Origin: Candidatus Eiseniibacteriota bacterium
GTDB taxonomy: Bacteria; Desulfobacterota; Binatia; DP-6
Assembly (NCBI GenBank): GCA_035577985.1
Contig: DATJZY010000025.1
Coordinates: forward strand, 66,229-130,228
Length of the DNA stretch: 64,000 nucleotides
Direction: 5' to 3'
The notes under the pieces are model-generated. The model saw nothing but the letters and a program-made list of their open reading frames with translations, was not told the DNA's origin and did not search any database. Position 1 is the stretch's first letter; each line of letters starts with the position of its first letter. Positions 5,158-56,954 of the stretch are shown one piece after another. The translations under genes and the position numbers were made by a program.

Positions 5158-5301
5158 TCGGTCCATCACCCGCGGGCGCGCGATGCTGCCACGGTGCGAT
5201 ATCCGCCACAAGACTCCGTCCACGATCTTTCGCATTCGCACGCGCACGCACCAAATGCCCGGCTGGGATGAGCTTCAACCGCGTGGCAGATTCGCCCGCC
5301 G

Positions 5302-10992: not shown

Positions 10993-12510
10993 ATGTCCGA
11001 GGAGTCAGAGCTTCAAGTCAGACGGGAGCGTGACCTCTATCTTCGACTCTTGCGGCTGGGCGACGCACAGGAGCTCGAGCCCTTTCTTCGCGAGGCCCTC
11101 GCGCTCATCGTCGAGGTGACCGGCGCACGCCTCGGCTACCTGCAGGTCGACGACGTCGACCATGATCCCGCGGGCGAGGGGTGGTGGATGCAGCACGGTT
11201 TCTCGGAGGGGGAGCTCGCCCAGGTGCGAGCCAGCATCTCGCAGGGGATCGTGGCGCAGGCGCTCGAGACCGGCGAGACGATCATGACGGCGTCGGCCCT
11301 CCTCGACCCGCGCTTCCGCGAGCGCGGGAGCGTCCGCGCCAGCCGCATCGAGTCGGTGCTGTGCGCGCCGATCGGCCGTGATCCGCGCCTGGGTGTGCTC
11401 TACCTGCAGGGCCGCACCGAGCCCGGGACCTTCACGGAGGAGGATCGATCGAACGCCGAGGTGTTCGCGCGCCACCTGGCGCCGCTGGCGGACCGACTGC
11501 TCACGCAGGAGCGGCGGCGGATCGACACCGACGCCACGCGCGCGGCTCGCCTGCGCCTGCGCGCCGACGGCGTGATCGGGCGCAGCGCCGCGCTCGCCAG
11601 GGTCCTCCAGCAGGTGGCCCTCGTGGCGCCGCTCGAGCTGTCCATCCTGCTCACGGGCGAGACCGGAACCGGCAAGAGCCAGCTCGCGCGCGTGATCCAC
11701 GACAACAGCCTGCGGGCGTCGGGTCCGTTCATCGAGCTCAACTGCGCCGCGCTCCCGGACAACCTGATCGAGAGCGAGCTGTTCGGGGCCATGCCCGGCG
11801 CCCACTCGACGGCGACCAAGCGGATCGAGGGCAAGCTCGCCGCCGCCACGCAGGGGACGCTCCTGCTCGACGAGGTCGGCGACCTCTCGCTGCCGGCGCA
11901 GGCGAAGCTCCTGCAGCTCCTGCAATCGGGGGAATACTTTCCGCTGGGGGCCGCGCGGTCCATCCGCGCCGACGTCCGCATCATCGCCGCGACCAACACG
12001 GATCTCGCCGCCGCGATGGCCGAGCACCGCTTCCGCGAGGATCTCTTCTACCGGCTGCACGTGCTGCCGATCCACGTGCCGAGCCTCGCCGAGCGGCGGG
12101 ACGACATCGGCGCGCTCGCCCAGTACTTCTGCGCCCAGGCGAGCGAGCGGCATCGGCTGCCGCACGTCGGCATCTCGCCGTACGCCCAGCGGGCGCTCGA
12201 GGCCGCGGAGTGGCCCGGCAACGTGCGCCAGCTCGCGCACAGCGTCGAAGCCGCCACCATCCGCGCCGCGGCGACCGGCGCGCGCTGGGTCGAGCGCGGC
12301 CACTTCTTCCCCGAGACGGGATCGAACGGGACCGAGCACAACGGACAGCTGACGTTCCAGGAGGCGACGCGGCGCTTCCACGTGAAGCTGCTCCGCGACA
12401 CGCTGGACGAATCTGGATGGAGCGTGATCGAGGCCGCCCGCCGTCTCGACCTCGCGCGCTCGCACGTCTACAACCTGATCCGCGCCCTCGGCATCGAGCG
12501 CCCGAAGTAG
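10993..12510 (+). CDS. Sigma-54-dependent transcriptional activator with N-terminal GAF domain (second copy)
   Basis: Walker A GETGTGKSQ, ESELFG, C-terminal HTH; 505 aa. Confidence 0.9.
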   Translation: MSEESELQVRRERDLYLRLLRLGDAQELEPFLREALALIVEVTGARLGYLQVDDVDHDPAGEGWWMQHGFSEGELAQVRASISQGIVAQALETGETIMTASALLDPRFRERGSVRASRIESVLCAPIGRDPRLGVLYLQGRTEPGTFTEEDRSNAEVFARHLAPLADRLLTQERRRIDTDATRAARLRLRADGVIGRSAALARVLQQVALVAPLELSILLTGETGTGKSQLARVIHDNSLRASGPFIELNCAALPDNLIESELFGAMPGAHSTATKRIEGKLAAATQGTLLLDEVGDLSLPAQAKLLQLLQSGEYFPLGAARSIRADVRIIAATNTDLAAAMAEHRFREDLFYRLHVLPIHVPSLAERRDDIGALAQYFCAQASERHRLPHVGISPYAQRALEAAEWPGNVRQLAHSVEAATIRAAATGARWVERGHFFPETGSNGTEHNGQLTFQEATRRFHVKLLRDTLDESGWSVIEAARRLDLARSHVYNLIRALGIERPK

Positions 12511-12584
12511 CTTCCGCGTCCACGATCGTGGACACGGCGTCAACACCGCGCGACGCCGCGGCGGCGGTTCCGTGCGCAATCCCG

Positions 12585-12600
12585 TGGCACCCGTCTTGCT
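12585..12600 (+). promoter_or_regulatory. Sigma-54 (-24/-12) promoter, consensus-perfect
   Basis: TGGCAC-ccgtc-TTGCT at 12585-12600 matches TGGCAC-N5-TTGCW exactly; about 75 nt downstream of the EBP stop, same strand. Confidence 0.6.
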
Positions 12601-12613
12601 CCGGAAAGACGGC

Positions 12614-12856
12614 ATGACGGGTAGCTGGTTGCAGACGGTACGCGGGAACGTGCGCTTCCTGCACAGGCGCGTCCCGCGACGGCGTCGGGCCTATGGCACC
12701 TGTGCCGCCTGCGGCGTGGCGCTCGAAGGGGCCGCCGATGGGTGGGAAGCGGCCGAGACACAGCTCCGCCGGCACGAGCTGGCGTGCCCACGCGACCGGC
12801 ACCCGGCGCCCAGACGCTCGGCAGCACCGAGGCTGGGCGCGGTCTCATCGACCTGA
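12614..12856 (+). CDS. Candidate small (80 aa) Cys-containing protein immediately downstream of the sigma-54 promoter (speculative)
   Basis: ATG 12614 sits 2-4 nt after the predicted +1; CxxC (GTCAACG) and C...H; moderate GC3 bias; Arg-rich, so it could be a spurious ORF. Confidence 0.2.
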   Translation: MTGSWLQTVRGNVRFLHRRVPRRRRAYGTCAACGVALEGAADGWEAAETQLRRHELACPRDRHPAPRRSAAPRLGAVSST

Positions 12857-12895
12857 CCTTCCTGGCGCAGATCTCCCTCCGCGCCGGGTGACGGG

Positions 12896-12926
12896 CTCCG
12901 CGGGGCCGCCTGTCGGCCCCGCGGAG
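12896..12926 (+). terminator. Perfect 12-bp GC stem / 7-nt loop hairpin (candidate terminator or attenuator; no U-tract)
   Basis: CTCCGCGGGGCC gcctgtc GGCCCCGCGGAG read directly from the sequence. Confidence 0.35.
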
Positions 12927-12929
12927 CGC

Positions 12930-12983
12930 GACCGTTCGGGCCCCGGAGTAGCCGGCCTGCAACCCCCGGCCGACCGTTCGGGC
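12930..12983 (+). promoter_or_regulatory. Two identical 12-bp direct repeats GACCGTTCGGGC (AlgR/LytTR-like half sites) upstream of lytS
   Basis: Copies at 12930-12941 and 12972-12983 (42-bp spacing); core CCGTTCG matches the P. aeruginosa AlgR box CCGTTCGTC; lies 74-127 nt upstream of the LytS start. Confidence 0.4.
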
Positions 12984-13056
12984 GAAACTGCTCGCGCGCG
13001 GGCGCCCGGCGCGCAACCGTAGTCGGTGAGGCCCGGCCTGCGGTAGCATCGGCGCC

Positions 13057-14190
13057 ATGGTCTCGGCCGACATCGTCATGAAGCGACCGTTCCTTCGAGA
13101 TCGCATGTTCCAGGTCGTGCTCGCCATGGGCGCGGCCGTGGGCCTCCACCTGGGCCTCCTCCACCTCTTCCTGTGGAAGACGGCGGCCGCCCCGCTCACC
13201 TTCTTCGTGTGCGCGCTCGTCTTCGCGTCCGTCGCCTACGCGCTGCAGCGATGGATCTTCCCGGCGCTCTCACGGCCGTCCTTCGCTGCCCAGGTGACGC
13301 TCGAGGTCGTGGCCGCGACGATCGCCTTCGGCGCGCTGTCGGTGGTGGTCGCATCGACGGTGGCGTACCTCCTGGGCGCGCCGCCGCTCTTCGGCAGCCC
13401 CACCGGAGCGGAGGAGCACATCCTCATCACCCCGGCGATGCGGCAGGCTGGCGTCCGCATGTACGCCCTCATGCCGATCGTGCCCACCGTCATCTCGTCG
13501 GTCATCGGCTATCACCTCGTCTGGCGGCGTATGGAGACGCTGCAGACCCGGGCGCAGGAGCTGACCGAGCTCGCCGCGACCGCACAGCTCGCCGCCCTGC
13601 GGGCGCAGATCAATCCGCACTTCCTGTTCAACAGTCTCAACTCGATCGCGCAGCTGATCCACGTCGACCCCGCCAAGGCCGAGGCGTGCGTCGAGCGGCT
13701 GGCCGAGATCTTCCGCTACCTCCTGCACCGCGCCGAGCAGGAGTTCGTGCCGCTCGCGGACGAGCTCCAGATGACGACGGCCTACCTCGAGATCGAGCGC
13801 GCGCGGTTCGACGAACGGCTGCGGGTCGAGACGCGCGTCGATCCGCGGAGCCTGCGGCGCCTGATTCCGAACCTGATCCTGCAGCCCCTGGTCGAGAACG
13901 CGGTGAAGCACGGCCTCTCGCGCAAGGTCGGGCCCGGCACGCTGCGCATCGACGCGCTGGTCGAAGACGAGATGCTGACGCTCGTCATCGGCGACGACGG
14001 GCTCGGCATGTCGTCCTCGGTGCTCGATTCGGTGTACGACCGCGGCGTCGGCCTGCGCAACCTGCGCGCCCGCCTCGAGCGCCTCTATGGGCCGTCGCAC
14101 CTGCCCGAGATCACGAGCACGCCCGGCGGCGGCACTCGCGTGTGCTTGCGCCTGCCCACGCGCGACGCCCTGCCACGCCAGGCGGCATGA
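13057..14190 (+). CDS. LytS/YehU-family sensor histidine kinase (5TM + His_kinase + HATPase_c)
   Basis: N-terminal TM helices; INPHFLFNSLNSIAQL (LytS-type H box region); LQPLVENAVKHG and GxGLxN ATPase motifs. Confidence 0.85.
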   Translation: MVSADIVMKRPFLRDRMFQVVLAMGAAVGLHLGLLHLFLWKTAAAPLTFFVCALVFASVAYALQRWIFPALSRPSFAAQVTLEVVAATIAFGALSVVVASTVAYLLGAPPLFGSPTGAEEHILITPAMRQAGVRMYALMPIVPTVISSVIGYHLVWRRMETLQTRAQELTELAATAQLAALRAQINPHFLFNSLNSIAQLIHVDPAKAEACVERLAEIFRYLLHRAEQEFVPLADELQMTTAYLEIERARFDERLRVETRVDPRSLRRLIPNLILQPLVENAVKHGLSRKVGPGTLRIDALVEDEMLTLVIGDDGLGMSSSVLDSVYDRGVGLRNLRARLERLYGPSHLPEITSTPGGGTRVCLRLPTRDALPRQAA

Positions 14191-14948
14191 CATCGATCCG
14201 CACGCTCGTCGTCGACGACGAGAAGCTCGCGCGCGATCGCCTCATCGGGTTTCTCGCCAAGGTCGACGGGGTGGAGGTGATCGGGCAGGCGATCAACGGC
14301 GTCGAGGCCGTCGAACGCATCGAGCAGGACCAGCCGGACCTGGTGTTCCTCGACGTCCAGATGCCCGGCATGGACGGCTTCGACGTGCTGAAGTCGCTCT
14401 CGCGCCCCGCGCCGCAGGTGGTGTTCGCGACGGCCTACGACGAGTACGCGATCCGCGCCTTCGAGGTCCAGGCGGTCGACTACCTCCTGAAGCCGTTCGC
14501 CCGCGCGCGCGTCGAAGAAGCGGTGGGCCGCGTCCGGACGCGCCTCGATCACGGCACGCCCGGGCTCGACGTCGAAGCGGTGCTGAAGCGCCTCGAGGAC
14601 AGCCGCAAGGACCACGTGCGGCAGGTGCCGGTGCACGCGGGTAAGCGCATCCTGCTGCTCCCGGTGGAAGACGTCCTGTGGTTCGGCGTCGAGTATCGCC
14701 TGGTCTACGCGCACACGGCCGAGCGCGCCTACATGACCAACCTCACGCTGCGCGAGCTCGAGGAGCGCCTCGACCCCGACGCGTTCTTCCGGGCCCACAA
14801 GGCGAGCCTCGTGAACATGCGCCAGGTGCGCGAGATCGTCCCCTGGTTCGGTGGTCGCTACAAGCTCGTCATGAAGGACGGCGCGGCAAGCGAGGTCGCC
14901 GTCAGCCGTGCCCAGGCGCGGGAGCTGCGCACGAAGCTGCGCTGGTGA
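14187..14948 (+). CDS. LytTR/AlgR-family response regulator (REC + LytTR DNA-binding domain)
   Basis: LVVDDE...FLDVQMPGMDGF receiver; C-terminal LytTR domain (VPVHAGKRILLLPVEDVLWF...); ATGA overlap with the kinase stop. Confidence 0.85.
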   Translation: MTSIRTLVVDDEKLARDRLIGFLAKVDGVEVIGQAINGVEAVERIEQDQPDLVFLDVQMPGMDGFDVLKSLSRPAPQVVFATAYDEYAIRAFEVQAVDYLLKPFARARVEEAVGRVRTRLDHGTPGLDVEAVLKRLEDSRKDHVRQVPVHAGKRILLLPVEDVLWFGVEYRLVYAHTAERAYMTNLTLRELEERLDPDAFFRAHKASLVNMRQVREIVPWFGGRYKLVMKDGAASEVAVSRAQARELRTKLRW

Positions 14949-14968
14949 TCGATGGCACCGCGGCGAGG

Positions 14969-14997
14969 TTGACAGGTTTCGGCACCGTCCGTAGACC
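14969..14997 (+). promoter_or_regulatory. Candidate sigma-70-type promoter TTGACA-N17-TAGACC upstream of the VWA-exbBD operon (weak -10)
   Basis: TTGACA at 14969-14974, TAGACC at 14992-14997; flanked by GGCACCG direct repeats (14954, 14981). Confidence 0.25.
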
Positions 14998-15014
14998 CCA
15001 TCGGTCCCGCCTCG

Positions 15015-16265
15015 ATGTCGCCCCCCCCTCCTCCGGTCTCGTCCTTCCATCCCCGGGCCGCCCGCAGCGCCGTCGCGCTCCTGGTCTCGATCCTCCTCCA
15101 CGTCGTCTTCGTCGCGCTCGTGATCTTCGACGTGACGGGGCTCGGCGGCGGGTTCGGCATCGGCGTCGGTCCGGGCTTCGGCATCGGCAGCGGCGGCGGT
15201 CCCGGCCTCGGCGAACAGCAGCGGCGCGAGATCTTCTCGCTCGAGGACATCCCGGACCTCGTGCGGCCGCAGGAGCCGAACTCCGAGCAGGAGCTGACCG
15301 CATTGCTGGCGCCGCGCGAAGCCGAGCGCATCCTCGTCCCGCAGCCGGCGAAGCCCAAGACGGCGACGTCGACCAACGCGCCCGTCATCCAGTTCGCCCG
15401 ACCCGTGAAGCCGATCGGCGCCGGCACCGATCTCGGCGCGCGCCTCGCGGCGGCGGGCGCGGGCTCGGGCGGCATCGGCCTCGGCGGCGGAGGCGGTGGT
15501 CTCGGCTGGTCGCTCGGCAGCTCGTTCGGAAAATACGTCGGGGGGCTCCGCAAGGTCGGCCTCGACGTCGCCATCGTCGTCGACTCGACCGGCAGCATGC
15601 AGAACATCATCGACGACCTGAAGCGCCGCCTGCAGGACCTGGTGCGCACCATGCAGCGCCTCGTCCCGACGGCGCGCATCGGCGCCGTCGCCTATCGCGA
15701 CCGCACCGACGACAAGGTCGCGACCGCACCGCGGCAGAGCGAGGATTTCCTCGTGAAGTGGAGCGACCTCACCTACAACGCCTCGAAGGTGCAGTCCTTC
15801 CTCGGCGGCATCGTCGCCGAGGGCGGCGGCGACTGGAAGGAAGCCGTGAAGGAAGGGCTCGAGACGGCGATGAAGCAGCTCAAGTGGCGCCCCGATGCCA
15901 AGAAGGTGATCATCATCGTCGGCAGCTCACCGCCGCACGACGAAGATCTCCCCGCCATCCGGAACCTCATCGCCGACTGGCGCGCGCGCAACGGCTACGT
16001 GAGCACGATCGACGTCAGCTATCCGCTCCACGCCGAGCACGAGCGCAAGCTCAATCGCTGGCTCTACGGCGAGGAGCCGAAGGAGATCTCGCCGCTGCCC
16101 GAGTTCTACAAGGAGCTGCAGCAGAGCTTCCACGAGATCTCGAAGCAGGGCGGCGGCACGGACGTCGCGCTGGGCGAGGACGCGGCGCTGGTGCGCAACG
16201 TGCTCGTGCTGGCATTCGGGTCGCAGTGGGAGAAAGAGGTGGGCCGCGTCGCACGCGGCCGGTAA
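15015..16265 (+). CDS. Membrane-anchored von Willebrand factor A (VWA) domain protein with TonB-like N-terminal architecture
   Basis: Single N-terminal TM helix ([20 protein letters not shown]), Gly-rich then Pro/Lys-rich linker, C-terminal VWA with MIDAS DxSxS (VVDSTGSM). Confidence 0.75.
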
Positions 16266-16290
16266 CGACTATGCTACGAGGAGCACCGTA

Positions 16291-16950
16291 ATGGAGAACG
16301 CCGTCAACCCCGTGGACCTCAGCTTCTGGACCTTGATCCAGCAGGGCGCGATCTCGACCTATCCCCTGCTCATCTGCTCGGTCATCGTGGTGGCCGTCGC
16401 GCTCGAACGCGCCTGGGCGCTGCGCGGCGCGCTCGCCGCGGCGCCCGCGCTCGCGGCGCGCATTGCGCCGACGCTCGCCAACGGCGACGCGAAGAACGCG
16501 ATCGCGACGCTGGCGCAGGCCCCCGCCACCGCTGCGCGACGCGTCTTCGCCGACATCCTGGCCGAGCCGGGGCTCGAACGGACCGAGCTCGAGCGGATCG
16601 CCGACGAACGCCAGTTCGAGGAGGCCCAGGAGGCCGGATCCTATCTCTGGATCCTCGGCACGATCGGATCGTCGGCGCCGTTCATCGGCCTGTTCGGTAC
16701 GGTGATGGGCATCATCCGCTCGTTCCACAGCATGGCGATCGCCGGCACCGGCGGCTTCGGCGTCGTCGCGGGCGGCATCTCCGAGGCGCTGATCGCAACC
16801 GCGCTCGGGCTCGCGGTCGGCATCCTCGCGGTCGTCCTCTACAACTACTTCCAGGCGCGCGTGGAACGCATCGACGCGGCCCTGCAGATCGGCAGCGCTC
16901 GGGTCGTGGAAGCGCTCATGGCCGGACGGAGAGCGCATGGCGTTCGGTAA
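16291..16950 (+). CDS. MotA/TolQ/ExbB-family proton-channel protein
   Basis: 219 aa, three TM helices, conserved TolQ/ExbB C-terminal TM2-TM3 block ([24 protein letters not shown]...[17 protein letters not shown]); GAGGAG RBS. Confidence 0.85.
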
Positions 16951-17341
16951 GGCCCATCGCCGCGGCCAGATCGTCGCCGAGATCAACGTCACGCCGCTGA
17001 CGGACGTATTCCTGGTCCTCCTCATCATCTTCATGATCACCACCTCGGCCATGGTGAAGCCCGCGGCCGACGTGAACCTGCCCGAGACCGCCGAGGACAA
17101 CCAGGAGACCCAGGGCGTCATGGTGACCATGACGCCGAGCAAGCAGATCTACGTCGGCGATCGCTCGGTCGAGGGCGACGACGCGGCGGTCGTGAGCGCG
17201 CTCAAGGACGCGCTCGCGCGCGCCAAGCAGAAGGTCGTGATCCTCGCCGGCGACCGGCAGGTCGTGCTCGGCGAGGTCGTTCGCGTGCTCGGGCTTGCCA
17301 AGGAGGCGGGCGCGTCCGGCTTCGCCCTGGCCTCGGAGTGA
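16937..17341 (+). CDS. ExbD/TolR-family biopolymer transport protein
   Basis: 134 aa; [19 protein letters not shown] signature TM; overlaps the ExbB stop. Confidence 0.85.
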
Positions 17342-19479
17342 TCGCCCGCGCCTTCTGCCTGGCGACCCTGATCGTCCTCGGGGTCGCGGCCGCCCTGCGC
17401 GCCGAGAGCCTCGGCGAGCTCGAGCGCCGGGCGAAGGCGTTCTACGACCTGCTCGAGCGCGGGCAGAAGGAGCAGGCCGCCGCGATCTTCCCCGACCTGG
17501 AGAAGGCCCTCGCCTCGACGCTGGACGACCTGCAGGAGCGGCTCGATCGCATGCGCGACGAGGTGATGGAGCGCGACGGCGACATCGAAGCGCTCTACAA
17601 GGAATCGCGCTGGCGCGACCCGGAGATCGCATCGCTGGTCATCACCTATCATCTGGCGTGGGTCCGCTATCAGGGCGCGCAGCTCACGACCGACCAGCGC
17701 CGCAAGAATCAGCTCCTCGACAAGGCGGTCGAGGGCTTCTCGCAGTTCCTGGTCGTGAACGAGGTTCCCGAGGTGTACGCCGAGAGCCAGTACGGGCGCG
17801 GCCTCGCGTTCCTGGACCTCGGCAACTACGCGCAGGCGCGCGACGACCTCGAGGCCGCCGCGAAGGATCCGCGCACTGCCGCCAAGGCGCGATCGGCGCT
17901 CGCCGAGCTGGCGCGACGGCAGGGCGGCAAGGCGAGCAAGGAGCCGGCTCCCGACGATCCCGAGACGCTCCTCGCGCAGCTCGGCGACGCGCTGCCGAAG
18001 GTGGCGAGCAACGCGGCGCTGGAGAAGGACACGACGGCCCTCGCCCGCGGTCTCGCGGCCCGCGGCGGCGACTGGCCGAAGCGCGTCGACGGCACGATCG
18101 CGACCAAGCTCGGCAACGGCACCCCGAGCGGCGTCACGTCGAGCTACGGCCTTCTCCTCCTGGCCCAGCTCGCGATCGATCGTAATCGCTGCGCAGACGT
18201 CGCGCCGCTCGCCGACGCGGGCGGCGCGGTGAAGGACGCGACGCGCGCGCGCTATCGGCCGGAGCTGCTCTACCTCGACGCCGGCTGCCTCATGAACGCG
18301 GGGAAGACGCGCGAGGCCGCCCAGGCGTTCGAGGAGCTGCTGCGCGACTTCCCGGATGCGGCGCGCGCGCGCGACGCCGCCTACTACCGCTTCCGCGCGC
18401 TCGACGTCGCACGTGCGAGCGACGCGTCGCTCGCAGCCGCGTACGAGGACGCACTCACGACCTTTGCGACGCGCTTCCCGAAGGACGACGCGGTCGGCGA
18501 GGCGCGCTACCAGCTGGGCGAGCTCTTGCGCAGTCGCGGCGACTGTCCGAAGGCCGAGGCGGAGTACGCACACGTCACGGCCGGTCCGTTCGCGACGCGC
18601 GCGCGCCTGGGCGCGCTCGAATGCGCGGTGGGCGCGCTCGTAAAGGCCGGCAAGGACGCCCCGCCGGAGCAGCGCCGCGCGCTCCTCGAACGCCTGCGCG
18701 CCTTCGTGCGCGACGTGCCCGCCAAGGGCGCCGACGAACAGGCCGTCGCGCGCGCGGCCCTCATGGGCGGTCTCGTCGCGGCAGACGCGCGCCCACCCGA
18801 CTCCGCGGCGGTGGTCGAGTTCCTCGACAAGTACGAGACCCGGTTCCCGGCCGCGAAGGAATGGCACGCGACGGCGGTCCAACGGCGCCTCGTCGCGCGC
18901 GTGGCGCTCGGGCAGCTCGACGCCGCGGAGCGTGACCTCGACGCGTACCTCGCCGCCGGTCCCGAGGCCGACCGCCGGCGCGTGCTCGACGACCTCGGGC
19001 GCGCGCTCCAGAAGCAGCTCGACGACCCCGACGAGGCGAAGCGACGCGCGGCGCTCGCGCTCGCACGCAAGGTCTACGGCGCTCTGGTGGCGAGCGGCGG
19101 TGAGACCGCCGACCGCGTGGCGCTCGCCGACCTCGAGCTGCGCGGCGGCAACGCCGCCGACGCGCGGCGGAGCTACGACGAGGTGCTGGCGAAGGATCCG
19201 ACCTCGGCCGAGGCGATGCGCGGCGCCGCGCGGGCGGCGGCGGCGCTCGGCGATCGTGCGGGCGCGCTCGCGCGCTGGAAGCAGGTGGTCGAGACGAGCC
19301 CGACCGGCGGCACCGGCTGGTACGAAGCGCGCATCGCCCAGGTGAAGCTCTTCCTCGACGCCGGCCAGAAGGGCGAAGCGTGCGAGGTCGCGCGCCTGTC
19401 CATCGGCAAGTCGACCACCACGGGCGGCGATCAGCTCGACAAGCAGCTCCGGCAGATCGCGACCGCGTCGTGTCGCTGA
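17338..19479 (+). CDS. Periplasmic tetratricopeptide-repeat (TPR) protein, 713 aa
   Basis: Signal peptide ([22 protein letters not shown]); repeated A/L/Y/R-rich helical TPR-like units; GTG start overlapping the ExbD stop (GTGA). Confidence 0.7.
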   Translation: MIARAFCLATLIVLGVAAALRAESLGELERRAKAFYDLLERGQKEQAAAIFPDLEKALASTLDDLQERLDRMRDEVMERDGDIEALYKESRWRDPEIASLVITYHLAWVRYQGAQLTTDQRRKNQLLDKAVEGFSQFLVVNEVPEVYAESQYGRGLAFLDLGNYAQARDDLEAAAKDPRTAAKARSALAELARRQGGKASKEPAPDDPETLLAQLGDALPKVASNAALEKDTTALARGLAARGGDWPKRVDGTIATKLGNGTPSGVTSSYGLLLLAQLAIDRNRCADVAPLADAGGAVKDATRARYRPELLYLDAGCLMNAGKTREAAQAFEELLRDFPDAARARDAAYYRFRALDVARASDASLAAAYEDALTTFATRFPKDDAVGEARYQLGELLRSRGDCPKAEAEYAHVTAGPFATRARLGALECAVGALVKAGKDAPPEQRRALLERLRAFVRDVPAKGADEQAVARAALMGGLVAADARPPDSAAVVEFLDKYETRFPAAKEWHATAVQRRLVARVALGQLDAAERDLDAYLAAGPEADRRRVLDDLGRALQKQLDDPDEAKRRAALALARKVYGALVASGGETADRVALADLELRGGNAADARRSYDEVLAKDPTSAEAMRGAARAAAALGDRAGALARWKQVVETSPTGGTGWYEARIAQVKLFLDAGQKGEACEVARLSIGKSTTTGGDQLDKQLRQIATASCR

Positions 19480-19491
19480 CGCTTCGGCCGT

Positions 19492-20037
19492 TCAGGTCGC
19501 CGCCGCGCGGCGCGGATCGGGGACCGAGAGCTGCACGACGACGCCGGGCTTCACCTTGAGCGTCCCGAGCAGCGCGCTGTAGGGCTGGATGCCGAAGTCG
19601 GGCTGGTGGAGCTGGACCTCGGCCGTCCAGCGCTCTCCCGACCGCCGCAGCGGTACGGCGACCTCGCGCTCCGCGCCGTGCAGGGTCAGGCGGCCGACGA
19701 CGTCGAAGCCGTCCGCGACCTCGACGACGCGCGTCGAGCGGAAGCGGATCTCCGGGTAGCGGTTGGCGTCCAGCACGTCGCGCCGGGCGTTGTCCTCGAT
19801 CGTGCGGCGGTCGGCGTCGGAGAGGGTGGTCGGCGGCAGCTCGGCCCCGTCGCGCAGCACCTGCCGGACGCGGAGCGAGGCCGCATCGAAGCTCGCGTCG
19901 ACCTCGCGCCGCGCCTCGTCGATCCGCAGGTCGAAGCGGGTCACCTCGAGCGCGAGGTCGTGACCGAAGCCGGAGAGCAGTCCCTCGCGGAACGTGAGGA
20001 CCCGGCAGACGGCGGCCGGCGGACCGAGACGGATCAT
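19492..20037 (-). CDS. YceI-like family protein
   Basis: Domain-sized (about 180 aa) beta-barrel sequence with typical central HGxxR/E motif (LTLHGAEREV); start at MIRLGPP. Confidence 0.55.
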   Translation of the reverse strand: MIRLGPPAAVCRVLTFREGLLSGFGHDLALEVTRFDLRIDEARREVDASFDAASLRVRQVLRDGAELPPTTLSDADRRTIEDNARRDVLDANRYPEIRFRSTRVVEVADGFDVVGRLTLHGAEREVAVPLRRSGERWTAEVQLHQPDFGIQPYSALLGTLKVKPGVVVQLSVPDPRRAAAT

Positions 20038-20053
20038 GCGCGCGTCGTTCGCC

Positions 20054-21025
20054 TCACCATGCGTAGGCTTCGGGCGCCTCGCCACCGGGACCCGGCCAGA
20101 TCTCGTCCAGACGCCGCAGCACGCCCTCGTCGAGAACGATCTCGAGCGCCCGCAGGCTTCCGCTGAGCTGCTCCATGGTGCGGGGCCCGATGATGGGCGC
20201 GGTCACGACGGGGTTGTGGAGCGTCCACGCGAGCGCGACGTCGGCGGGCTCGTGGCCGAGCTGCCGGCAGAGCGTCTCGTAGGCTTCGATCTGCGGACGG
20301 TGCTTCTCGAGCTTCTGCGCGACCAGGTCGCGTGACCGCCGGCCCTTGCCGCGATCGCCGAGGACGCCGCCGAGGGCGCCGCTCGCGAGCGGGCTCCACG
20401 GGATGATCCCGATGCCGTACGCCCGGCAGGCCGGAACCACCTCTAGCTCGATCGTGCGCATGGTGAGGTTGTAGAGGCTCTGCTCGGAGACGAGGCCGAG
20501 AAAATTCCGGCGCGCCGCCGCCTCCGTCGCCTGCGCGATCTGCCAGCCCGCGAAGTTGCTCGATCCCACGTAGAGGACCTTGCCCTGCTGGACGAGCAGC
20601 TCCATCGCCTGCCAGACCTCGTCCCACGGCGTCTCCCGATCGATGTGGTGCATCTGGTAGAGATCGATGTGATCGGTCTTGAGGCGCCGCAGGCTGCCCT
20701 CGCACGCCTCGCGGACGTGGCGCGCGGACAGACGCTGGTCGTTCGGACCGCCGCCCATCTTCCCGTAGACCTTGGTCGCGAGGACGACCTTCTCGCGCCG
20801 CCCTCCGCCCTGCGCGAGCCAGCGGCCGATGATCTGCTCGGTGACGCCTTCGCCGGTCTTCCAGCCATAGACGTTCGCGGTGTCGAAGAAGTTGAGGCCC
20901 AGCTCGAGCGCCTTGTCCATGATCGCATGGCTGTCGGGCTCGGTGGTGTACGGCCCGAAGTTCATGGTGCCGAGGCAGAGACGGCTCACGCGCAGGCCGG
21001 TGCGACCCAGACGAGCGTAGTCCAT
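20054..21025 (-). CDS. Aldo/keto reductase
   Basis: MDYARLGRTGLRVSRLCLGTMNFG N-terminus, catalytic tetrad context (D..Y..K..H), IIPWSPLASG; 323 aa. Confidence 0.9.
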   Translation of the reverse strand: MDYARLGRTGLRVSRLCLGTMNFGPYTTEPDSHAIMDKALELGLNFFDTANVYGWKTGEGVTEQIIGRWLAQGGGRREKVVLATKVYGKMGGGPNDQRLSARHVREACEGSLRRLKTDHIDLYQMHHIDRETPWDEVWQAMELLVQQGKVLYVGSSNFAGWQIAQATEAAARRNFLGLVSEQSLYNLTMRTIELEVVPACRAYGIGIIPWSPLASGALGGVLGDRGKGRRSRDLVAQKLEKHRPQIEAYETLCRQLGHEPADVALAWTLHNPVVTAPIIGPRTMEQLSGSLRALEIVLDEGVLRRLDEIWPGPGGEAPEAYAW

Positions 21026-23188: not shown

Positions 23189-23743
23189 ATGTCGACGTAT
23201 GGGCCCGTGGCCGCGCTGGCCCTCTCGACCTCCGCGGCCGTCATCCTTGCCACCGGTTGCGACCTTCGAAGCGATCGCATGCGACCGTCCGTCGGCCCCC
23301 CCGCCACGGGCCTCGGCGCGCACGTCGTTCGCACCGTCGAGGTCTCGTCGGCCCTCTCGATGCCGTCGCTGCGCGTGGTCACGCCGGAGATGCTGCGCGA
23401 CGTGCTGCAACGCGCCCTCACCGACGCCGGCGCGTACGGCGCCGGCGGCCGCTACGTGCTGCACACGAAGATCGTGAGGCTCGAGGGCGGCGGATCGGGC
23501 ATCGGCTTCAACCGCTACGCGCTCGTCGCGATCGACAATCGGCTCGTGGACGATCGCGATCCCGCTTGGAACTGGCACGACGAGGCGTCGGCGAGTCCGG
23601 GCATGCTCCCCATTCCCGGGCAGACGTTCGCCGGGATGGATGCGCAGCGCGAGGCGTTCGAGGCGGCGGTGAGCAACGTAGCCGGCCAGACCGCACGCGC
23701 CGTGCGTGACACGCTCGAGCGTCGATCCAAGGAGAGCCCATGA
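23189..23743 (+). CDS. Hypothetical lipoprotein
   Basis: Signal peptide with lipobox ILATGC; ATGA overlap with the following giant gene. Confidence 0.55.
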   Translation: MSTYGPVAALALSTSAAVILATGCDLRSDRMRPSVGPPATGLGAHVVRTVEVSSALSMPSLRVVTPEMLRDVLQRALTDAGAYGAGGRYVLHTKIVRLEGGGSGIGFNRYALVAIDNRLVDDRDPAWNWHDEASASPGMLPIPGQTFAGMDAQREAFEAAVSNVAGQTARAVRDTLERRSKESP

Positions 23744-26700
23744 CGAAACCCCTGTCGATCGCCGCGCTCTGGGTTGCCCTTCTCCTGCCGAGGCCGATCG
23801 TCGCCGCCACCATCACGGTCGCCACGACCGACGACACGAACGCGGTCGCCTGCACGCTGCGCGACGCGATCACGGCCGCCAACACCGACGCCGTGAGCGG
23901 CGCGTGCCCGGCCGGGGCCGGTGACGACACGATCGACCTCAGCGGTCTCGGCGGAACGATCCTGCTCGGAGCCGCGCTCCCCGGGATCACGACGAACATG
24001 ACCCTGCGTGGTCCGGGAGCGCACGTCCTCACCATCAGCGGACAGGACAGCGTGCAGGTCTTCGTCGTGACGGGCCCGACCGTCACGATCTCCGACGTGA
24101 CGATCGCGCACGGCCTCGCTGCCGGCTCTGGTCGGGGCGGCGGTGTCGAGACCCTCGCGGGCTCGGTCGCCCTCACGCTGTCGCGCGTCGTGATCACACT
24201 CTCTCAGGGCTTCAACGGCGGTGGGATCGCGAACGACGGGGGCGGAACCATGACGATCGTCGACAGCGCGATCGTCGGCAACACCACGACCGGCAACGCC
24301 GGCGCGGGCATCTTGAGCGCCCATTCTTCGACGCTCGTCCTCACCAACACGACCGTGGCCGGGAACACCAACACGGGATTGGACCGCGCGGGCGCGGGAC
24401 TCCTGCTCTCTCGTGGCACGGCGACGATCACCAACTGCACCTTCGCCAACAACGTTGGCACGAGCACGGGCGGGTGGGAGATCATGAACCTGGTCCCGAT
24501 GGAGGACCCCGTCGGTACCCTGCATTTGAAGAACACGATCGTCGCCAACCAGTCCGGCCACGGCTGCCTCGGGCCGATCACGTCGGGCGGCCACAACCTC
24601 TCCGACGACACGACCTGCGCGCTCGCGGGCCCCGGCGATCTCCAGGGCGTCGCCGCGGGCCTCAGCGCACTCGGCGACCACGGCGGTCCGACGCCGACTC
24701 TGGCGCTCGTCGCCGGGAGCCCGGCGATCGACGCCGGAGATGCGGCCGCGTGTCCCCCCGCCGACCAGCGCGGGGTCGGCCGGCCGGTCGACGGCGACGC
24801 CAACGGAAGGGCCGGCTGCGACATCGGCGCCTACGAGGTCGGCTGCGGCGACGGGATCCCTCCGAACAGCCGGTGCGCGCCCGACGCGAATCCATGTACC
24901 GACGACGTGTGCGACGCCCTCGGCGCGTGCCAGCATCCGACTGCCGCGACCGGAGCGCCCTGCGACGATGGGGACCACTGCACGCTCGGCGACACCTGCG
25001 CGAGCGGCGTCTGCTCGGCCGGCACGACCCCGGGGTGCCCGGCAGTGGGAAGCCTCACCTACCGCACCTGCATCACCGGCGAGCTCGAGACGGGCCCGGC
25101 GGGAACGAACGCGTGCACGCAGATCGCCGGCGCCACCTCGGTCGCCCAGCACTCGGGTCTCGACAACCTGCGATCGGTGACCGAGAGCGCGGACGGGATC
25201 TCGCTGTACGTCACGTCCGGCAACGACGACGCCGTCGCACGCTTCGACCGGGATCCCACGACCGGAGCGCTCGCGTACCAGGGGTGCATCTCGGGCGCGA
25301 TCGAGACCGGCCCCACGGGCACGAGCGCCTGCGCGCAGATCCCGAGCGCCACCACGGCCGGACAGAGCTCCGGGCTCGATTTGCCGCAGGCGATCGCGCT
25401 CAGCCCGGACGGGAAGTCGCTCTACACCGCGTCCCTCACGGACGACGCGGTCGCCCGTTTCGACCGGGACACCGCGACGGGTGCCCTCACCTACCGCGAC
25501 TGCCTCACCGGGAAGTCCGAGGCGAACGACACCGCCTGTACCAAGATCCCGAGCGCGAGCTCGTCGGGCATCGATTCGGGTCTCGACTCCCTGTCGGCTC
25601 TGGTGGTGAGCACGGACGGAAAGTCGCTCTACACGGTCTCGCGCGACGACGACGCCGTCGCGCGCTTCGATCGCGACACGGCGACCGGCGCCCTCACCTA
25701 CCAGGGCTGCATCACCGGCGAGACCGAGAGCGGGCCCGCCGGCACGGGCGCGTGTGTGCAGATCGGGAGCGCCGCCTCGGGGGGCGCGAACTCCGGGCTC
25801 GATGACCTCTTCTCGCTGGCAGTCAGCGCGGACGGGAAGTCCCTGTACGCCGTCTCCCTATTGGACGATGGGGTCGCTCGCTTCGCCCGCGATCCGGGGG
25901 CGGGCGCCCTCGTCTACCAGGGCTGCATCAGCGGCGAGATCGAGAGCGGCCCCACCGGCACCGGCGCCTGCGCCCAGATCGGCGCCGCGGCGTCGTCGGG
26001 CGTCAACTCCGGGCTCGATGCGCTCTACGCGATCGTCGTCAGCCCCGACGACAAGTCGGTCTACACGGTCTCGCAGGAGGACGACGCCGTCGACCGCTTC
26101 GACCGCGATCCGGGAAACGGCGCGCTCACCTACCAGGGCTGCATCACCGGCGAGACCGAGAGCGGTCCGGCAATCCCGATCCCAGGCACCGGTGCGTGCG
26201 TCGAGATCGCGAGCGCCACCTCGCGCGGAACGAACTCGGGACTCGACAAGCTGCGCTCGATGGCGGCGAGCCCGGACGGGACGTCGCTCTACGTCGCCTC
26301 GCCGCAGGACGACACGATCGCGCACTTCGTGCGTGACCCCATGAGCGGTGCGCTCACCTACGAGAGCTGCATCACGGCGGAGGCAGAGACCGGCCCTACG
26401 GGGACGAACGCCTGTGCCCAGATCCCGAGCGCAACCTCGTTCGGCACGAACTCCGGCGTCGACAATCCGCAGGCATTCCTCGTGAGCCCCGTCGGGCTCC
26501 AGCTCTACACGAGCTCCGGGAACGACGCGGCCGTGGCGCGCTTCGACCGCGAGCCCGAGCCGCCGCCCACGACGACGACCACGACGCTGCCCGGGCAGGC
26601 GATCCGCGGCAAGCTCCTCCTCATCGTCGACGGCACCGACGCCAAGAAGCGCAAGATCGTCTTCAAGGCGAAGGATGCGAGCATCGACACCAGCGCGGGC

Positions 26701-27108
26701 AGCGGCATCGATCCGGTCACGGACGGGGCCGTGTTCCAGGTCTTCAACGATGCGGGCACGGGGGACTCGGCCTGCTTCGATCTTCCCGCGGCCGGATGGA
26801 CGAGGAAGGGCAAGCCGGCCAAGCCGACGTTCCGCTATCGGGACAAGAAGTTCGCGATGGGTCCCTGCAGCCTCACGACCGTCCAGGACGCCAAGTCGCT
26901 CGTGGTCGTGTGTCAGGCGAAGGTGCGGCCGATCGACTACTCGCTCGACCAGCCCGCACAGCAGCGGGTGGGCGTGCGCTTTCGCAGCGGCGGTACCGAG
27001 TACTGCACGGTCTTCGGGGGCAAGGTCCTGAAGGACAAGCAGAAGACAAAGTTCCGGGCGAAGAACGCGCCGGCGGCGTGTCCGGCGGCGCCCGTCGCCT
27101 GTCCCTGA
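23740..27108 (+). CDS. Giant secreted multidomain protein: right-handed beta-helix (ending CDIGAYE) + Myxococcus-type Cys-rich repeat + about 10 beta-propeller repeats + Thr-rich linker + C-terminal domain
   Basis: Signal peptide MTKPLSIAALWVALLLPRPIVA; GGGIANDGGGTMTIVDSAIVGNTTTGNAGAGI beta-helix repeats; PDANPCTDDVCDALGAC; repeats SPDGKSLYxxSxxDDAVARFDRDxxTGALTYQGCITGExESGPxGTGAC. Confidence 0.75.
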   Translation: MTKPLSIAALWVALLLPRPIVAATITVATTDDTNAVACTLRDAITAANTDAVSGACPAGAGDDTIDLSGLGGTILLGAALPGITTNMTLRGPGAHVLTISGQDSVQVFVVTGPTVTISDVTIAHGLAAGSGRGGGVETLAGSVALTLSRVVITLSQGFNGGGIANDGGGTMTIVDSAIVGNTTTGNAGAGILSAHSSTLVLTNTTVAGNTNTGLDRAGAGLLLSRGTATITNCTFANNVGTSTGGWEIMNLVPMEDPVGTLHLKNTIVANQSGHGCLGPITSGGHNLSDDTTCALAGPGDLQGVAAGLSALGDHGGPTPTLALVAGSPAIDAGDAAACPPADQRGVGRPVDGDANGRAGCDIGAYEVGCGDGIPPNSRCAPDANPCTDDVCDALGACQHPTAATGAPCDDGDHCTLGDTCASGVCSAGTTPGCPAVGSLTYRTCITGELETGPAGTNACTQIAGATSVAQHSGLDNLRSVTESADGISLYVTSGNDDAVARFDRDPTTGALAYQGCISGAIETGPTGTSACAQIPSATTAGQSSGLDLPQAIALSPDGKSLYTASLTDDAVARFDRDTATGALTYRDCLTGKSEANDTACTKIPSASSSGIDSGLDSLSALVVSTDGKSLYTVSRDDDAVARFDRDTATGALTYQGCITGETESGPAGTGACVQIGSAASGGANSGLDDLFSLAVSADGKSLYAVSLLDDGVARFARDPGAGALVYQGCISGEIESGPTGTGACAQIGAAASSGVNSGLDALYAIVVSPDDKSVYTVSQEDDAVDRFDRDPGNGALTYQGCITGETESGPAIPIPGTGACVEIASATSRGTNSGLDKLRSMAASPDGTSLYVASPQDDTIAHFVRDPMSGALTYESCITAEAETGPTGTNACAQIPSATSFGTNSGVDNPQAFLVSPVGLQLYTSSGNDAAVARFDREPEPPPTTTTTTLPGQAIRGKLLLIVDGTDAKKRKIVFKAKDASIDTSAGSGIDPVTDGAVFQVFNDAGTGDSACFDLPAAGWTRKGKPAKPTFRYRDKKFAMGPCSLTTVQDAKSLVVVCQAKVRPIDYSLDQPAQQRVGVRFRSGGTEYCTVFGGKVLKDKQKTKFRAKNAPAACPAAPVACP

Positions 27109-36575: not shown

Positions 36576-36582
36576 AGACGAC

Positions 36583-50166: not shown

Positions 50167-50246
50167 CTTCAGCAATCCACCATCCGGCATTGTGCCGGGA
50201 ATCCCCGCGGGTTGCGAGGCAGCCACGCCGCTTCTATGGTCGACGC

Positions 50247-56799: not shown

Positions 56800-56954
56800 G
56801 CTCCTCCCTACTCACGGCTCCCGCCGAGGTGTCAACGCTTTTCTGCTCGACGTGTCACGATCGGCACAGGCCCAGGGCAAAAAGGGATGCACGGCTTGTA
56901 ACGCCTCCCGAGCCACGGGATGGTGCCGAACGCTTCGATGGAGCGTGGGATCGC

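Follow-up and report, generated by a model that had tools for sequence, protein, structure and literature searches.

A putative force transducer with an integrin-like VWA head encoded beside ExbB/ExbD-type motor genes in a Binatia-like genome

[quoted passage not shown] The locus analyzed here raises the question of whether a membrane-anchored VWA protein, encoded directly upstream of ExbB/ExbD-like genes, could play the part of TonB or TolA. We examined this question in a stretch of 64,000 nucleotides (hereafter the window), using protein family profiles, structure models and the comparison of related loci. Our results suggest that the product of the locus is probably a trans-envelope machine of the Ton/Tol type, with the VWA domain in the place held by the C-terminal domain of TonB/TolA.

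The gene block and its products

The block consists of six genes in the order LytS/LytTR pair, VWA, ExbB/TolQ-like, ExbD/TolR-like and TPR; all features described below lie on the + strand. It is headed by a LytS/AlgZ-type sensor histidine kinase gene (13057..14190; 377 aa; Pfam His_kinase PF06580, E = 3.6e-27; HATPase_c, E = 1.9e-10), which also neighbors the VWA gene in the orthologous loci of the window clade. The LytTR-family response regulator gene that follows (14187..14948; 253 aa; Response_reg, E = 9e-25; LytTR, E = 3.1e-26) is kept across clade-A loci; its start overlaps the stop codon region of the kinase gene and its translation was verified. The VWA protein, the putative force transducer, is encoded at 15015..16265 (416 aa, ATG start) and was defined from its reading frame, Pfam matches, orthologs and AlphaFold2 model. 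Its N-terminus is common to every aligned ortholog.

The two genes downstream encode the motor subunits. The ExbB/TolQ-like proton-channel subunit (16291..16950; 219 aa; PF01618, E = 3.5e-30) carries Thr137, Glu165 and Thr170, which align to T148, E176 and T181 of E. coli ExbB. The ExbD/TolR-like subunit (16937..17341; 134 aa; PF02472, E = 7.8e-23) presents the transmembrane Asp23 (codon 17003-17005) and a C-terminal strand, GFALAS, that is invariant within clade A. All NCBIfam scores remained below the equivalog cutoffs (TolQ 98 against 221 bits, ExbB 82 against 206, TolR 89 against 127 and ExbD 58 against 153). The scores of the pair under the TolQ and ExbB cutoffs suggest that these subunits belong to a dedicated clade rather than to a housekeeping motor. 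The genes overlap by 14 nt (ExbB/ExbD) and by 4 nt (ExbD/TPR), which is indicative of translational coupling and was counted in favor of a single machine.

The last gene (17338..19479), whose GTG start overlaps the ExbD stop, encodes an all-alpha protein of 713 aa with TPR Pfam matches that is CpoB/YbgF-like by repeat similarity. It matched TIGR02795 (tol_pal_ybgF) with an E-value of 8.9e-19, below the cutoff, and showed a weak match to the GltE TPR (E = 0.0027, far below the cutoff). Its AlphaFold2 model (pLDDT 90) is entirely helical with a signal-like helix at the N-terminus, and a fold search with this model returned generic TPR solenoids only. As judged from its sequence, the signal peptide and six invariant cysteines point to a periplasmic partner with disulfide bonds. 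In some JGI records, homologs of the TPR protein are called "TolA-binding protein".

We further searched the surroundings of the block for regulatory signals and additional components. An exact sigma-54 promoter consensus (TGGCAC-N5-TTGCT; 12585..12600), the sole match without mismatch within the window, precedes the kinase gene by 457 nt. Its membership in the system is uncertain: the site was absent from 88 of 88 related loci and was left out of the system for this lack of conservation. Scans of 12400-20200 for sigma-70 promoters and intrinsic terminators found none. The operon contains no outer-membrane partner gene, and no TonB-dependent transporter gene was found among the window ORFs scanned. 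A bpMoxR gene is located at 49941-51365, 30 kb from the block. We also considered an anti-phage defense function, since some defense systems such as Zorya contain MotAB-like parts; this reading was rejected because PADLOC models gave no match at E ≤ 0.001 for any of four proteins.

The VWA head and the linker

The VWA domain spans aa 167-416 (15513..16262) and was delimited with Pfam, AlphaFold2, Foldseek and a profile alignment. Pfam assigned aa 184-334 to VWA_2 (E = 1.2e-8) and VWA (E = 4.5e-8); at E ≤ 0.01 it returned VWA-type families only, and NCBIfam gave no match for the protein. TonB_C and TolA domain III were not present according to Pfam, NCBIfam and the fold model. AlphaFold2 models aa 168-416 with a pLDDT of about 85, and Foldseek ranks integrin beta subunits as the best PDB matches of the domain (E about 3e-9).

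A profile alignment with integrin beta-8 extends this likeness to the metal site: the DxSxS of the integrin beta-I domain corresponds to D190-x-T192-x-S194 (codons 15582-15596), its D-x-P-E-GG to the integrin-beta-type GGGD273xxE276 (codons 15831-15842) and its GWR to W291-R292. Judged by alignment, E276 supplies the fourth MIDAS position. Several differences are nonetheless evident. Sequence identity to the beta-I domain is about 15%, no ADMIDAS Asp pair could be aligned, and the VWA protein lacks the hybrid, PSI and EGF domains as well as the alpha-subunit partner of integrin beta subunits. In addition, the position of the fifth MIDAS Asp is taken by Ser304/305 (GSSPPH) in the window clade, whereas distant relatives present GDAPPH. 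The domain had initially been described as a complete MIDAS VWA domain; the VWA fold is confirmed, but with D-x-T-x-S, the integrin-beta-type element and the Ser at the fifth position the MIDAS is non-canonical. The Ser substitution may weaken or alter metal binding at the putative site.

The linker of 126 aa that joins the head to the membrane anchor is predicted to be disordered (aa 43-168; AlphaFold2), although several of its elements show higher conservation than the intervening spacer. Gly-rich segment 1 (aa 42-66; 15138..15212), noted at the outset as a Gly-rich segment, is 60% Gly, alternates Gly with hydrophobic residues (a 13-residue stretch typifies it) and proved to be the best-conserved part of the linker, with 13 invariant positions in alignment A1. 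Across 110 orthologs, the mean frequency of the major residue is 0.88 in this segment, compared to 0.81 in the VWA domain and 0.49 in the spacer, a level of conservation far above chance expectation. Linker motif 1 (aa 67-85; 15213..15269), with a characteristic stretch of 12 residues, follows with invariant Arg71, Asp78 and Pro80; its SLEDIP/SLKDLP-type motif is common to clade-B relatives. The variable spacer (aa 86-120; 15270..15374), predicted to be disordered, has the lowest conservation. Linker motif 2 (aa 121-146; 15375..15452; mean conservation 0.79) contains a Pro-flanked strand-like element within a 21-residue stretch and has invariant Val124, Phe127, Pro130, Pro133, Asp139, Leu140 and Arg143. 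Gly-rich segment 2 (aa 147-166; 15453..15512), with poly-Gly at 157-161, is 60% Gly with a conservation of 0.83.

The preliminary description had placed a Pro/Lys-rich spacer in this region. A short stretch of this kind does exist and its start falls in the variable spacer, but the latter is only 14% Pro, is the least conserved part of the linker and shows no clear rigidity or strong enrichment in Pro. The C-terminal half of the stretch (11 residues) is not a spacer but a conserved linear motif. Since the linker is predicted to be disordered and is rich in Gly, rather than forming a stiff rod of polyproline or helix, it is not obvious that force would be transmitted efficiently along it.

This property of the linker raises an alternative in which the protein is coupled to the motor but serves as a regulated tether or sensor: the ligand of the MIDAS would be the TPR protein or the linker of the VWA protein itself, the motor would only toggle the protein between attachment and release, and the outcome would feed into LytS/LytTR. 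Besides the floppy, Gly-rich linker, the conserved acidic, LDV-like motif SLEDIP, the lack of an outer-membrane component in the operon and the conservation of the two-component system beside these genes in the window clade are consistent with such a role. However, the VWA-motor-TPR core extends well beyond the window clade, to which the two-component pair is restricted, and the AlphaFold2 monomer presents no confident contact between the linker and the VWA domain, with a pLDDT below 50 over residues 43-87. We consider this tether doubtful, with a small chance of being correct.

Anchor helix, related loci and topology

The N-terminal TM helix spans aa 18-41 (15066..15137; codons checked) and contains a 17-residue stretch proposed earlier as a single TM span. 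This proposal was borne out by the Kyte-Doolittle profile, whose best 19-residue window (3.07) falls inside aa 18-41, and by the AlphaFold2 helix at residues 15-41. Ser25 (codon 15087-15089) and His29 (codon 15099-15101) form an S-x3-H motif within this helix. Compared to the SHLS motif of TonB/TolA, the Ser and the His are kept while the Leu and the second Ser are not. The positions at H+7 and H+11 (36 and 40) are both Val; in orthologs, position 36 is variable and position 40 is mostly Val.

The conservation of the TM His, singled out from the start as the residue to check, was confirmed: of 120 orthologs, 116 contain S-x3-H and the other four are N-terminally truncated, such that all 116 N-terminally complete orthologs possess the motif. 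In an alignment of 46 relatives at 26-63% identity (alignment A2), His29 is invariant, which equals the conservation of the MIDAS Asp, and the conservation of Ser25 is 90% or higher.

We then analyzed the genomic context of the S-x3-H VWA genes. In GTDB species-representative genomes, 51 of the 59 such genes (assigned by a best-TM-segment classifier; the locus search used the narrower alignment A4 and its 80 loci are biased towards Binatia-like genomes) have ExbB/ExbD homologs no more than 3.5 kb away, and for 43 of the 59 the TPR gene is also close by. Eight S-x3-H genes form VWA-VWA pairs that lack a motor in this range. The VWA and motor loci present at least three different gene orders, and the retention of ExbB/ExbD across these orders suggests a functional linkage rather than inherited adjacency. 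One such order, ExbB-ExbD-ExbD-VWA(S-x3-H), was observed in a Gammaproteobacteria MAG and includes the relative P0165 (E = 6e-39). In Binataceae loci, the VWA gene adjoining ExbB-ExbD-ExbD has a His-less anchor. A profile search aimed at Kiritimatiellota/PVC members returned mostly the window clade.

These data bear on a second alternative, that of a static VWA protein, either Bat-like (BatA/BatB) or a scaffold, standing beside an ordinary ExbBD/TolQR pair without energy coupling. Indeed, simple binding proteins held in the membrane are common among bacterial VWA proteins, BatB is a weak match of the family profile (3ibs; E = 0.0057), and some relatives are found as VWA-VWA pairs with DUF4159 or lack a nearby motor. 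However, a TM His with the S-x3-H spacing of TonB, invariant down to 26% identity, is unexpected in a passive anchor, and the adjacency of ExbB/ExbD in several gene orders, together with equivalog scores that set these subunits apart, also speaks against this possibility. MoxR and DUF58 genes accompany Bat operons, and none was found in the six-gene block (ORF list and Pfam), on which ground the Bat-operon reading was rejected. Overall, we regard a static anchor as unlikely.

The same helix informs the orientation of the protein. Flanking charges are +2/0 on the N-terminal side and 0/-1 on the C-terminal side, and the single Asp of the helix, D39, is found at its periplasmic end. A cytoplasmic-facing protein had been named as an outcome that would contradict a TonB-like layout; the charges, the hydrophobicity and the secreted, Cys-bearing TPR partner instead indicate an N-in, VWA-out arrangement. 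Charge and hydrophobicity thus favor a periplasmic orientation of the VWA domain in the predicted topology. We also evaluated Gly-rich segment 1 as a second TM span and rejected it, based on its best 19-residue Kyte-Doolittle value (0.83, against 3.07 for the helix) and its absence from relatives with a like architecture. A hairpin or N-out topology, with a cytoplasmic VWA domain that binds a cytoplasmic partner and regulates the motor from inside, would accommodate the highly conserved Gly/hydrophobic alternation, the position of Arg70 and Arg71 after the Gly-rich stretch and the lack of cysteines in the VWA protein, but is very improbable given this low hydrophobicity, the clade-B and clade-D relatives that keep the architecture without the stretch, the positive N-terminal and acidic periplasmic flanks, an AlphaFold2 model with no helix in the stretch and an obligate partner gene encoding a secreted, Cys-rich TPR protein.

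Taken as a whole, the TonB/TolA-like anchor-plus-spacer design coupled to ExbBD that the preliminary description put forward is supported by the S-x3-H motif, the predicted N-in topology and the synteny, with the limits that the spacer is not clearly rigid and that the Ser and His alone are kept from SHLS.

Proposed mechanism and relation to known systems

From the observed domain architecture, the conservation of key residues and the synteny, we propose that this trans-envelope machine would operate as follows. ExbB and ExbD would form a proton-driven inner-membrane motor, expected by homology to be a 5:2 complex. The VWA protein would be anchored N-in, with the Ser25/His29 face of its helix docking outside the ExbB ring in the manner of the TonB and TolA helices, which dock through SHLS in cryo-EM structures (as summarized in PMC12204202); a like docking model was proposed for vWA transducers from AlphaFold 3 (PMC12204202). 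By analogy with the TonB D-box, a strand captured by the ExbD dimer (PMC10907165), one conserved strand-like element of the linker could be captured by the periplasmic ExbD dimer. With the D-box pattern as defined in PMC10907165, three conserved elements are candidates: aa 47-59 (the Gly repeat), EIFSLEDIP (72-80) and P-VIQFAR-P (123-130). In clade-B relatives, a D-box-like strand is found where the window protein has Gly-rich segment 1. The MIDAS metal site of the VWA head would hold an acidic residue of a periplasmic or outer-membrane partner, such that the work of the motor pulls on this partner. The CpoB-like TPR protein could be the periplasmic partner or a scaffold, and the LytS/LytTR pair probably controls expression in the window clade. 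A more elaborate scheme, in which the Gly-hydrophobic repeat replaces the D-box as the grip of ExbD, SLEDIP is an internal MIDAS ligand and pulling by the motor unmasks an autoinhibited MIDAS for an external ligand, seems quite unlikely to hold in full.

The closest known systems are the vWA force transducers, which were described from synteny and AlphaFold 3 only (Mol Biol Evol 2025; PMC12204202) and for which a role in gliding was suggested (PMC12204202). Like these proteins, the window protein possesses a TM helix with a conserved His, a disordered linker of ~100 residues and a C-terminal vWA domain, and its gene has tolQ-like, tolR-like and TPR neighbors. The prototype, from Tichowtungia aerotolerans, has the gene order TPR-tolQ-tolR-tolR-vWA, and vWA transducers of the PVC group are accompanied by a pair of tolR-like genes (PMC12204202). 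In contrast, the window locus has a single ExbD/TolR gene, not two heterologous ones, and follows the order VWA-ExbB-ExbD-TPR. It further differs in the Gly-hydrophobic repeat placed right after the TM helix, the Ser at the fifth MIDAS Asp, the LytS/LytTR genes upstream and a Binatia-like MAG lineage that is not in the list of PMC12204202. With the T. aerotolerans prototype compared by description, the window locus is probably another member of the vWA force transducers. Indirect evidence for a homology to the prototype comes from the relative P0165, which has S-x3-H and the ExbB-ExbD-ExbD-VWA order. A second family, the TPH-vWA proteins, is defined by a trans-pore helix of ExbD type that bears a proton-binding Asp, and by the absence of SHLS and of a tolR/exbD gene nearby (PMC12204202); the window protein was not assigned to it, as it presents S-x3-H, an exbD gene is found nearby and D39 is situated at the periplasmic end of the helix.

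The similarities to the Ton system comprise the single N-in TM helix, whose cytoplasmic half bears S-x3-H, neighboring exbB-exbD genes that keep the channel Thr/Glu/Thr and Asp, and the order tonB-like, exbB, exbD, as in many tonB operons. However, the window protein has no TonB_C domain and so would not engage in Ton-box strand exchange, and its linker is Gly-rich and disordered whereas TonB has a polyproline rod.

Relative to Tol-Pal, the ExbB-like subunit scores slightly higher for TolQ than for ExbB, the ExbD-like subunit scores higher for TolR, and the CpoB/YbgF-like TPR gene is the last of the operon, as is cpoB in tol-pal. CpoB binds domain II of TolA, which suggests that the TPR protein may bind the VWA linker. 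On the other hand, the window locus contains no TolB, Pal or TolA domain III, its TPR protein is much longer (713 aa against about 260), and all NCBIfam scores are far below the equivalog cutoffs. In the Agl-Glt gliding machinery of Myxococcus, a TolQR-type motor is functionally tied to CglB, a VWA/MIDAS protein that is described in PMC9946355 as an outer-membrane lipoprotein, and so differs from a protein anchored in the inner membrane by a TonB-like helix. Beyond the weak GltE TPR match, no Glt genes were found at the window locus.

These results confirm and refine the published idea of vWA transducers (PMC12204202) and do not open a new one. They add a compact and well-conserved four-gene version (VWA, ExbB, single ExbD and TPR) from an uncultured soil lineage, and the linked two-component regulator is a further addition to the class. 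The locus also supplies targets for mutation: Ser25, His29, the Gly-hydrophobic repeat, SLEDIP, PVVxFARP, D190, T192, S194 and E276. If the reading with an autoinhibited MIDAS were true, the bacterial periplasm would harbor a proton-powered, integrin-style activation switch. More generally, a third type of transducer, with an integrin-like, metal-dependent head, would extend the Ton/Tol principle to a different mode of target recognition.

Layout and conservation of the VWA protein

The VWA protein (15015-16265, + strand; 416 aa) has the layout given in the preliminary description: an anchor helix, a Gly-rich segment, a spacer and a VWA domain. The anchor helix spans aa 18-41 (best 19-mer Kyte-Doolittle score 3.07; AlphaFold2 helix 15-41), residues 43-168 are predicted to be disordered and residues 168-416 are modeled as a confident VWA fold (pLDDT ~85; AlphaFold2). 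An identical protein is recorded in a MAG labelled Candidatus Eisenbacteria, and the other close relatives (62-87% identity) come from MAGs labelled Candidatus Binatia or Deltaproteobacteria. The cluster-representative relatives P0212, P0219, P0223, P0225, P0228, P0230, P0245 and P0249 are longer (600-730 aa) with long N-terminal extensions, and their VWA-domain match is confined to the C-terminal half.

The membrane His noted in the preliminary description belongs to an S-x3-H motif (Ser25, His29) present in 116 of the 120 orthologs listed; the other four are N-terminally truncated records. An exhaustive search of cluster representatives yielded 6003 relatives at E ≤ 1e-3, of which 95 reached E ≤ 1e-30; most of the full-length ones (350-460 aa) carry an N-terminal helix with [ST]-x3-H. 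We aligned a diverse set of 46 such proteins (26-63% identity to the window VWA protein) and found only eight invariant columns, among them His29 and the MIDAS Asp190, with Ser25 at least 90% conserved. Because His29 is polar, lies within a membrane helix and is conserved equally with the metal-site Asp, the alignment provides strong evidence that this residue is functional. Positions H+7 and H+11 of the SHLS motif are Val or variable, and the S-H half alone is retained. Flank charges (N-terminal, +2/0; periplasmic, 0/-1), hydrophobicity and the TPR partner, with its signal-like helix and six invariant Cys, all point to a periplasmic VWA domain with the N-terminus inside.

Across 110 orthologs, the Gly-rich segment (aa 42-66; 60% Gly, alternating with hydrophobic residues) is the best-conserved stretch of the linker (conservation of 0.88, relative to 0.81 for the VWA domain and 0.49 for the spacer at aa 86-120). 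It is too polar to represent a membrane span (Kyte-Doolittle 0.83). The Pro/Lys-rich spacer initially described stood only in part: aa 86-120 contain just 14% Pro and form the least conserved region, but the C-terminal half of the stretch holds a conserved Pro-flanked motif in which Val124, Phe127, Pro130 and Pro133 are invariant. This Pro-flanked element reads PVVxFARPVxP in clade A (the gene order of the window clade) and APIQRAAIP in clade B (another gene order of related loci), and both clades share the linker motif SLEDIP/SLKDLP, whose Asp78 is invariant in clade A. Immediately downstream of the anchor helix, clade B presents a strand-like sequence (EKILVKAL/ELIKVKTL) where clade A presents the Gly-hydrophobic repeat. 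The alternating hydrophobic and hydrophilic residues of the clade B strand fit the pattern of the TonB D-box, a segment captured by an ExbD dimer (PMC10907165). A motor box is predicted in the linker of the published vWA force transducers (PMC12204202); in clades A and B it could be the SLEDIP-type motif, the Pro-flanked element or the post-helix strand/Gly-hydrophobic repeat.

The top PDB structural matches of the VWA domain are integrin beta subunits (beta-I domain; E ~3e-9), and the family profile matches ITIH4 (3.7e-4) and integrin beta-8 (5.5e-4). The window family motif GLDVxxVxDxTGSM corresponds to VDLYYLVDVSASM of integrin beta-8, GGGD273xxE276 to its D-x-P-E-GG element and W291-R292 to its GWR. 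In integrin beta subunits, the MIDAS is coordinated by the Glu of D-x-P-E-GG and the neighboring metal site by the Asp just before it. Based on this alignment and the known role of the Glu, the predicted MIDAS of the window protein consists of D190, T192, S194 and E276. The MIDAS described initially as complete is not the canonical five-residue site, since the window clade carries a Ser (GSSPPH) at the fifth Asp, which distant relatives keep (GDAPPH). Metal binding by the VWA head is plausible.

Gene block, partners and synteny

The gene lies in a tight six-gene block on the + strand (13057-19479), within a window of ~71% G+C. The block encodes a LytS/AlgZ-type histidine kinase (13057-14190; Pfam His_kinase, 3.6e-27), a LytTR response regulator (14187-14948; LytTR, 3.1e-26), the VWA protein (VWA_2, 1.2e-8), an ExbB/TolQ-like protein (16291-16950; MotA_ExbB, 3.5e-30), an ExbD/TolR-like protein (16937-17341; ExbD, 7.8e-23) and a 713-aa TPR protein (17338-19479; several Pfam TPR families). 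The kinase/regulator, ExbB/ExbD and ExbD/TPR genes overlap by 4, 14 and 4 nt, respectively, and the other intergenic gaps are 66 and 25 nt. This spacing fits a single operon. The block is followed downstream by a YceI-like gene in the opposite orientation.

The ExbB-like protein gives a gap-free alignment with E. coli ExbB across residues 124-216, in which its Thr137, Glu165 and Thr170 match T148, E176 and T181. The ExbD-like protein retains the membrane Asp (Asp23), and its C-terminal strand GFALAS is invariant in the clade. As both proteins score well under the TolQ/ExbB and TolR/ExbD equivalog cutoffs of NCBIfam, they are, on these sequence scores, a distinct clade of the motor family rather than housekeeping Ton or Tol motors.

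The TPR protein is confidently modeled as an all-helical solenoid (pLDDT 90; AlphaFold2); a signal-like helix stands at its N-terminus, and the model shows no further domain. A fold search returned generic TPR proteins, the CpoB/YbgF model was matched at 8.9e-19, under its cutoff, and some source annotations name homologs 'TolA-binding protein'. Six Cys (285, 317, 403, 429, 682 and 712) are invariant across 32 homologs (52-95% identity), which suggests three disulfides within the solenoid, an unusual feature for TPR proteins. CpoB binds domain II of TolA, and by analogy the VWA linker may be where the TPR protein binds.

We scanned one genome per GTDB species, which yielded 80 loci (a set biased towards Binatia-like genomes) whose ORFs were called and searched with the six window proteins. 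Of the 59 S-x3-H VWA genes, 51 lie within 3.5 kb of an ExbB or ExbD homolog, and 43 also have a TPR-protein homolog nearby. The linkage has exceptions: eight S-x3-H VWA genes are in VWA-VWA pairs with no motor inside 3.5 kb. Gene order varies: kinase-regulator-VWA-ExbB-ExbD-TPR in the window clade (order A; at least 63% identity), ExbB-ExbD-VWA-TPR, in many cases with another ExbB-ExbD pair after it (order B), VWA-ExbB-(ExbD)-TPR in Myxococcales MAGs (order D), VWA-TPR-ExbB in a metagenome contig and ExbB-ExbD-ExbD-VWA in a Gammaproteobacteria MAG. Because linkage persists through rearrangement, this argues for a functional unit.

The additional ExbB-ExbD pair of clade B loci, a more distant one, is found downstream of the TPR gene, either directly after it (L032, L037, L040, L045 and L073) or 3-5 kb past it (L043, L046-L050, L052-L054 and L057). 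In Binataceae loci, the VWA gene adjoining ExbB-ExbD-ExbD encodes an N-terminal anchor that is plain and lacks the His (MIAVIIILLVLSTFVVAFIFYR). A second locus of Binataceae-type genomes encodes an S-x3-H VWA protein followed by a plain-anchor VWA protein, motor-free within 3.5 kb, which hints at two-transducer systems spread across two loci (loci of both types: L059-L066, L072, L075, L077 and L081-L083; also L062, L069-L071, L074, L076 and L084). In a long-read MAG (contig_77105; L001/L014), the orthologous operon has fragmented ExbB and ExbD genes, probably reflecting an assembly frameshift and not true decay.

Several other features were observed in the window. An exact sigma-54 promoter consensus (TGGCACCCGTCTTGCT; 12585-12600, +), the sole zero-mismatch match within the window, lies 457 nt upstream of the kinase gene, in the interval separating this gene from a GAF-sigma54 activator gene (10993-12510); the exact site was found in 0 of 88 related loci. 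A bpMoxR AAA+ ATPase (49941-51365, +; PF20030, 1.3e-58) belongs to a family that marks MoxR-vWA-beta-propeller ternary systems. Two large lactonase-type beta-propeller-repeat proteins are encoded at 3166-5274 (-) and 23740-27108 (+), one with Big_9/cadherin-like domains and the other with a beta-helix region. An ExeA/GspA-like AAA_22 ATPase (36532-38265, +) ends in a PG_binding_1 peptidoglycan-binding domain. Finally, an MFS transporter (56781-58799, +; PF07690, 2.5e-48) carries a zf-UBP zinc finger (PF02148, 1.5e-11) fused to its C-terminus, an odd pairing for a bacterial transporter.

Proposed mechanism and relation to known systems

The TonB/TolA-like, motor-coupled reading put forward initially is supported by the conservation of the membrane His, the predicted periplasmic topology and the synteny with ExbB/ExbD. 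The most likely mechanism is that of a motor-coupled VWA transducer. ExbB-ExbD would form a proton-driven motor (5:2 by homology) holding the VWA protein via the side of its anchor helix that bears Ser25 and His29, and ExbD would bind a linker strand as a second hold. The MIDAS head would then grip an acidic residue of a partner, on which the work of the motor would act. The TPR protein would serve as a partner or a scaffold in the periplasm. In the window clade, the operon is probably under the control of the LytS/LytTR pair. Architecture, conserved residues and synteny are observed, and the docking, strand capture, force transmission, ligand and role are inferred from them. This mechanism is weakened by the floppy Gly-rich linker, by the Ser in place of the fifth MIDAS Asp and by the lack of an outer-membrane component among the genes of the operon.

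We rejected a known defence system and a Bat operon for this locus, as well as TPH-vWA, the second family of PMC12204202, for the protein. Membership in the TonB/TolA family proper was also rejected, since the VWA protein has a different C-terminal domain. The same interpretation was published in June 2025 for 'vWA force transducers', composed of an SHLS membrane helix, a disordered linker that contains a motor box, a ~100-residue domain II and a C-terminal vWA domain (PMC12204202). AlphaFold 3 models place their His at the TonB/TolA site, and the authors state that the function is unknown, with no deletion phenotype reported (PMC12204202). We found no later experimental work on these transducers in the literature. 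The window locus shares every class feature checked but differs in its gene order, in having a single ExbD and a two-component pair, and in the Gly-hydrophobic insert and fifth-position MIDAS Ser of its VWA protein. Its lineage is also absent from those listed for the class (Proteobacteria, Planctomycetes, Verrucomicrobia, Bacteroidetes and Rhodothermaeota; PMC12204202). The VWA locus is a further member of this transducer class, itself a recent computational prediction, to which it adds clade-specific features.
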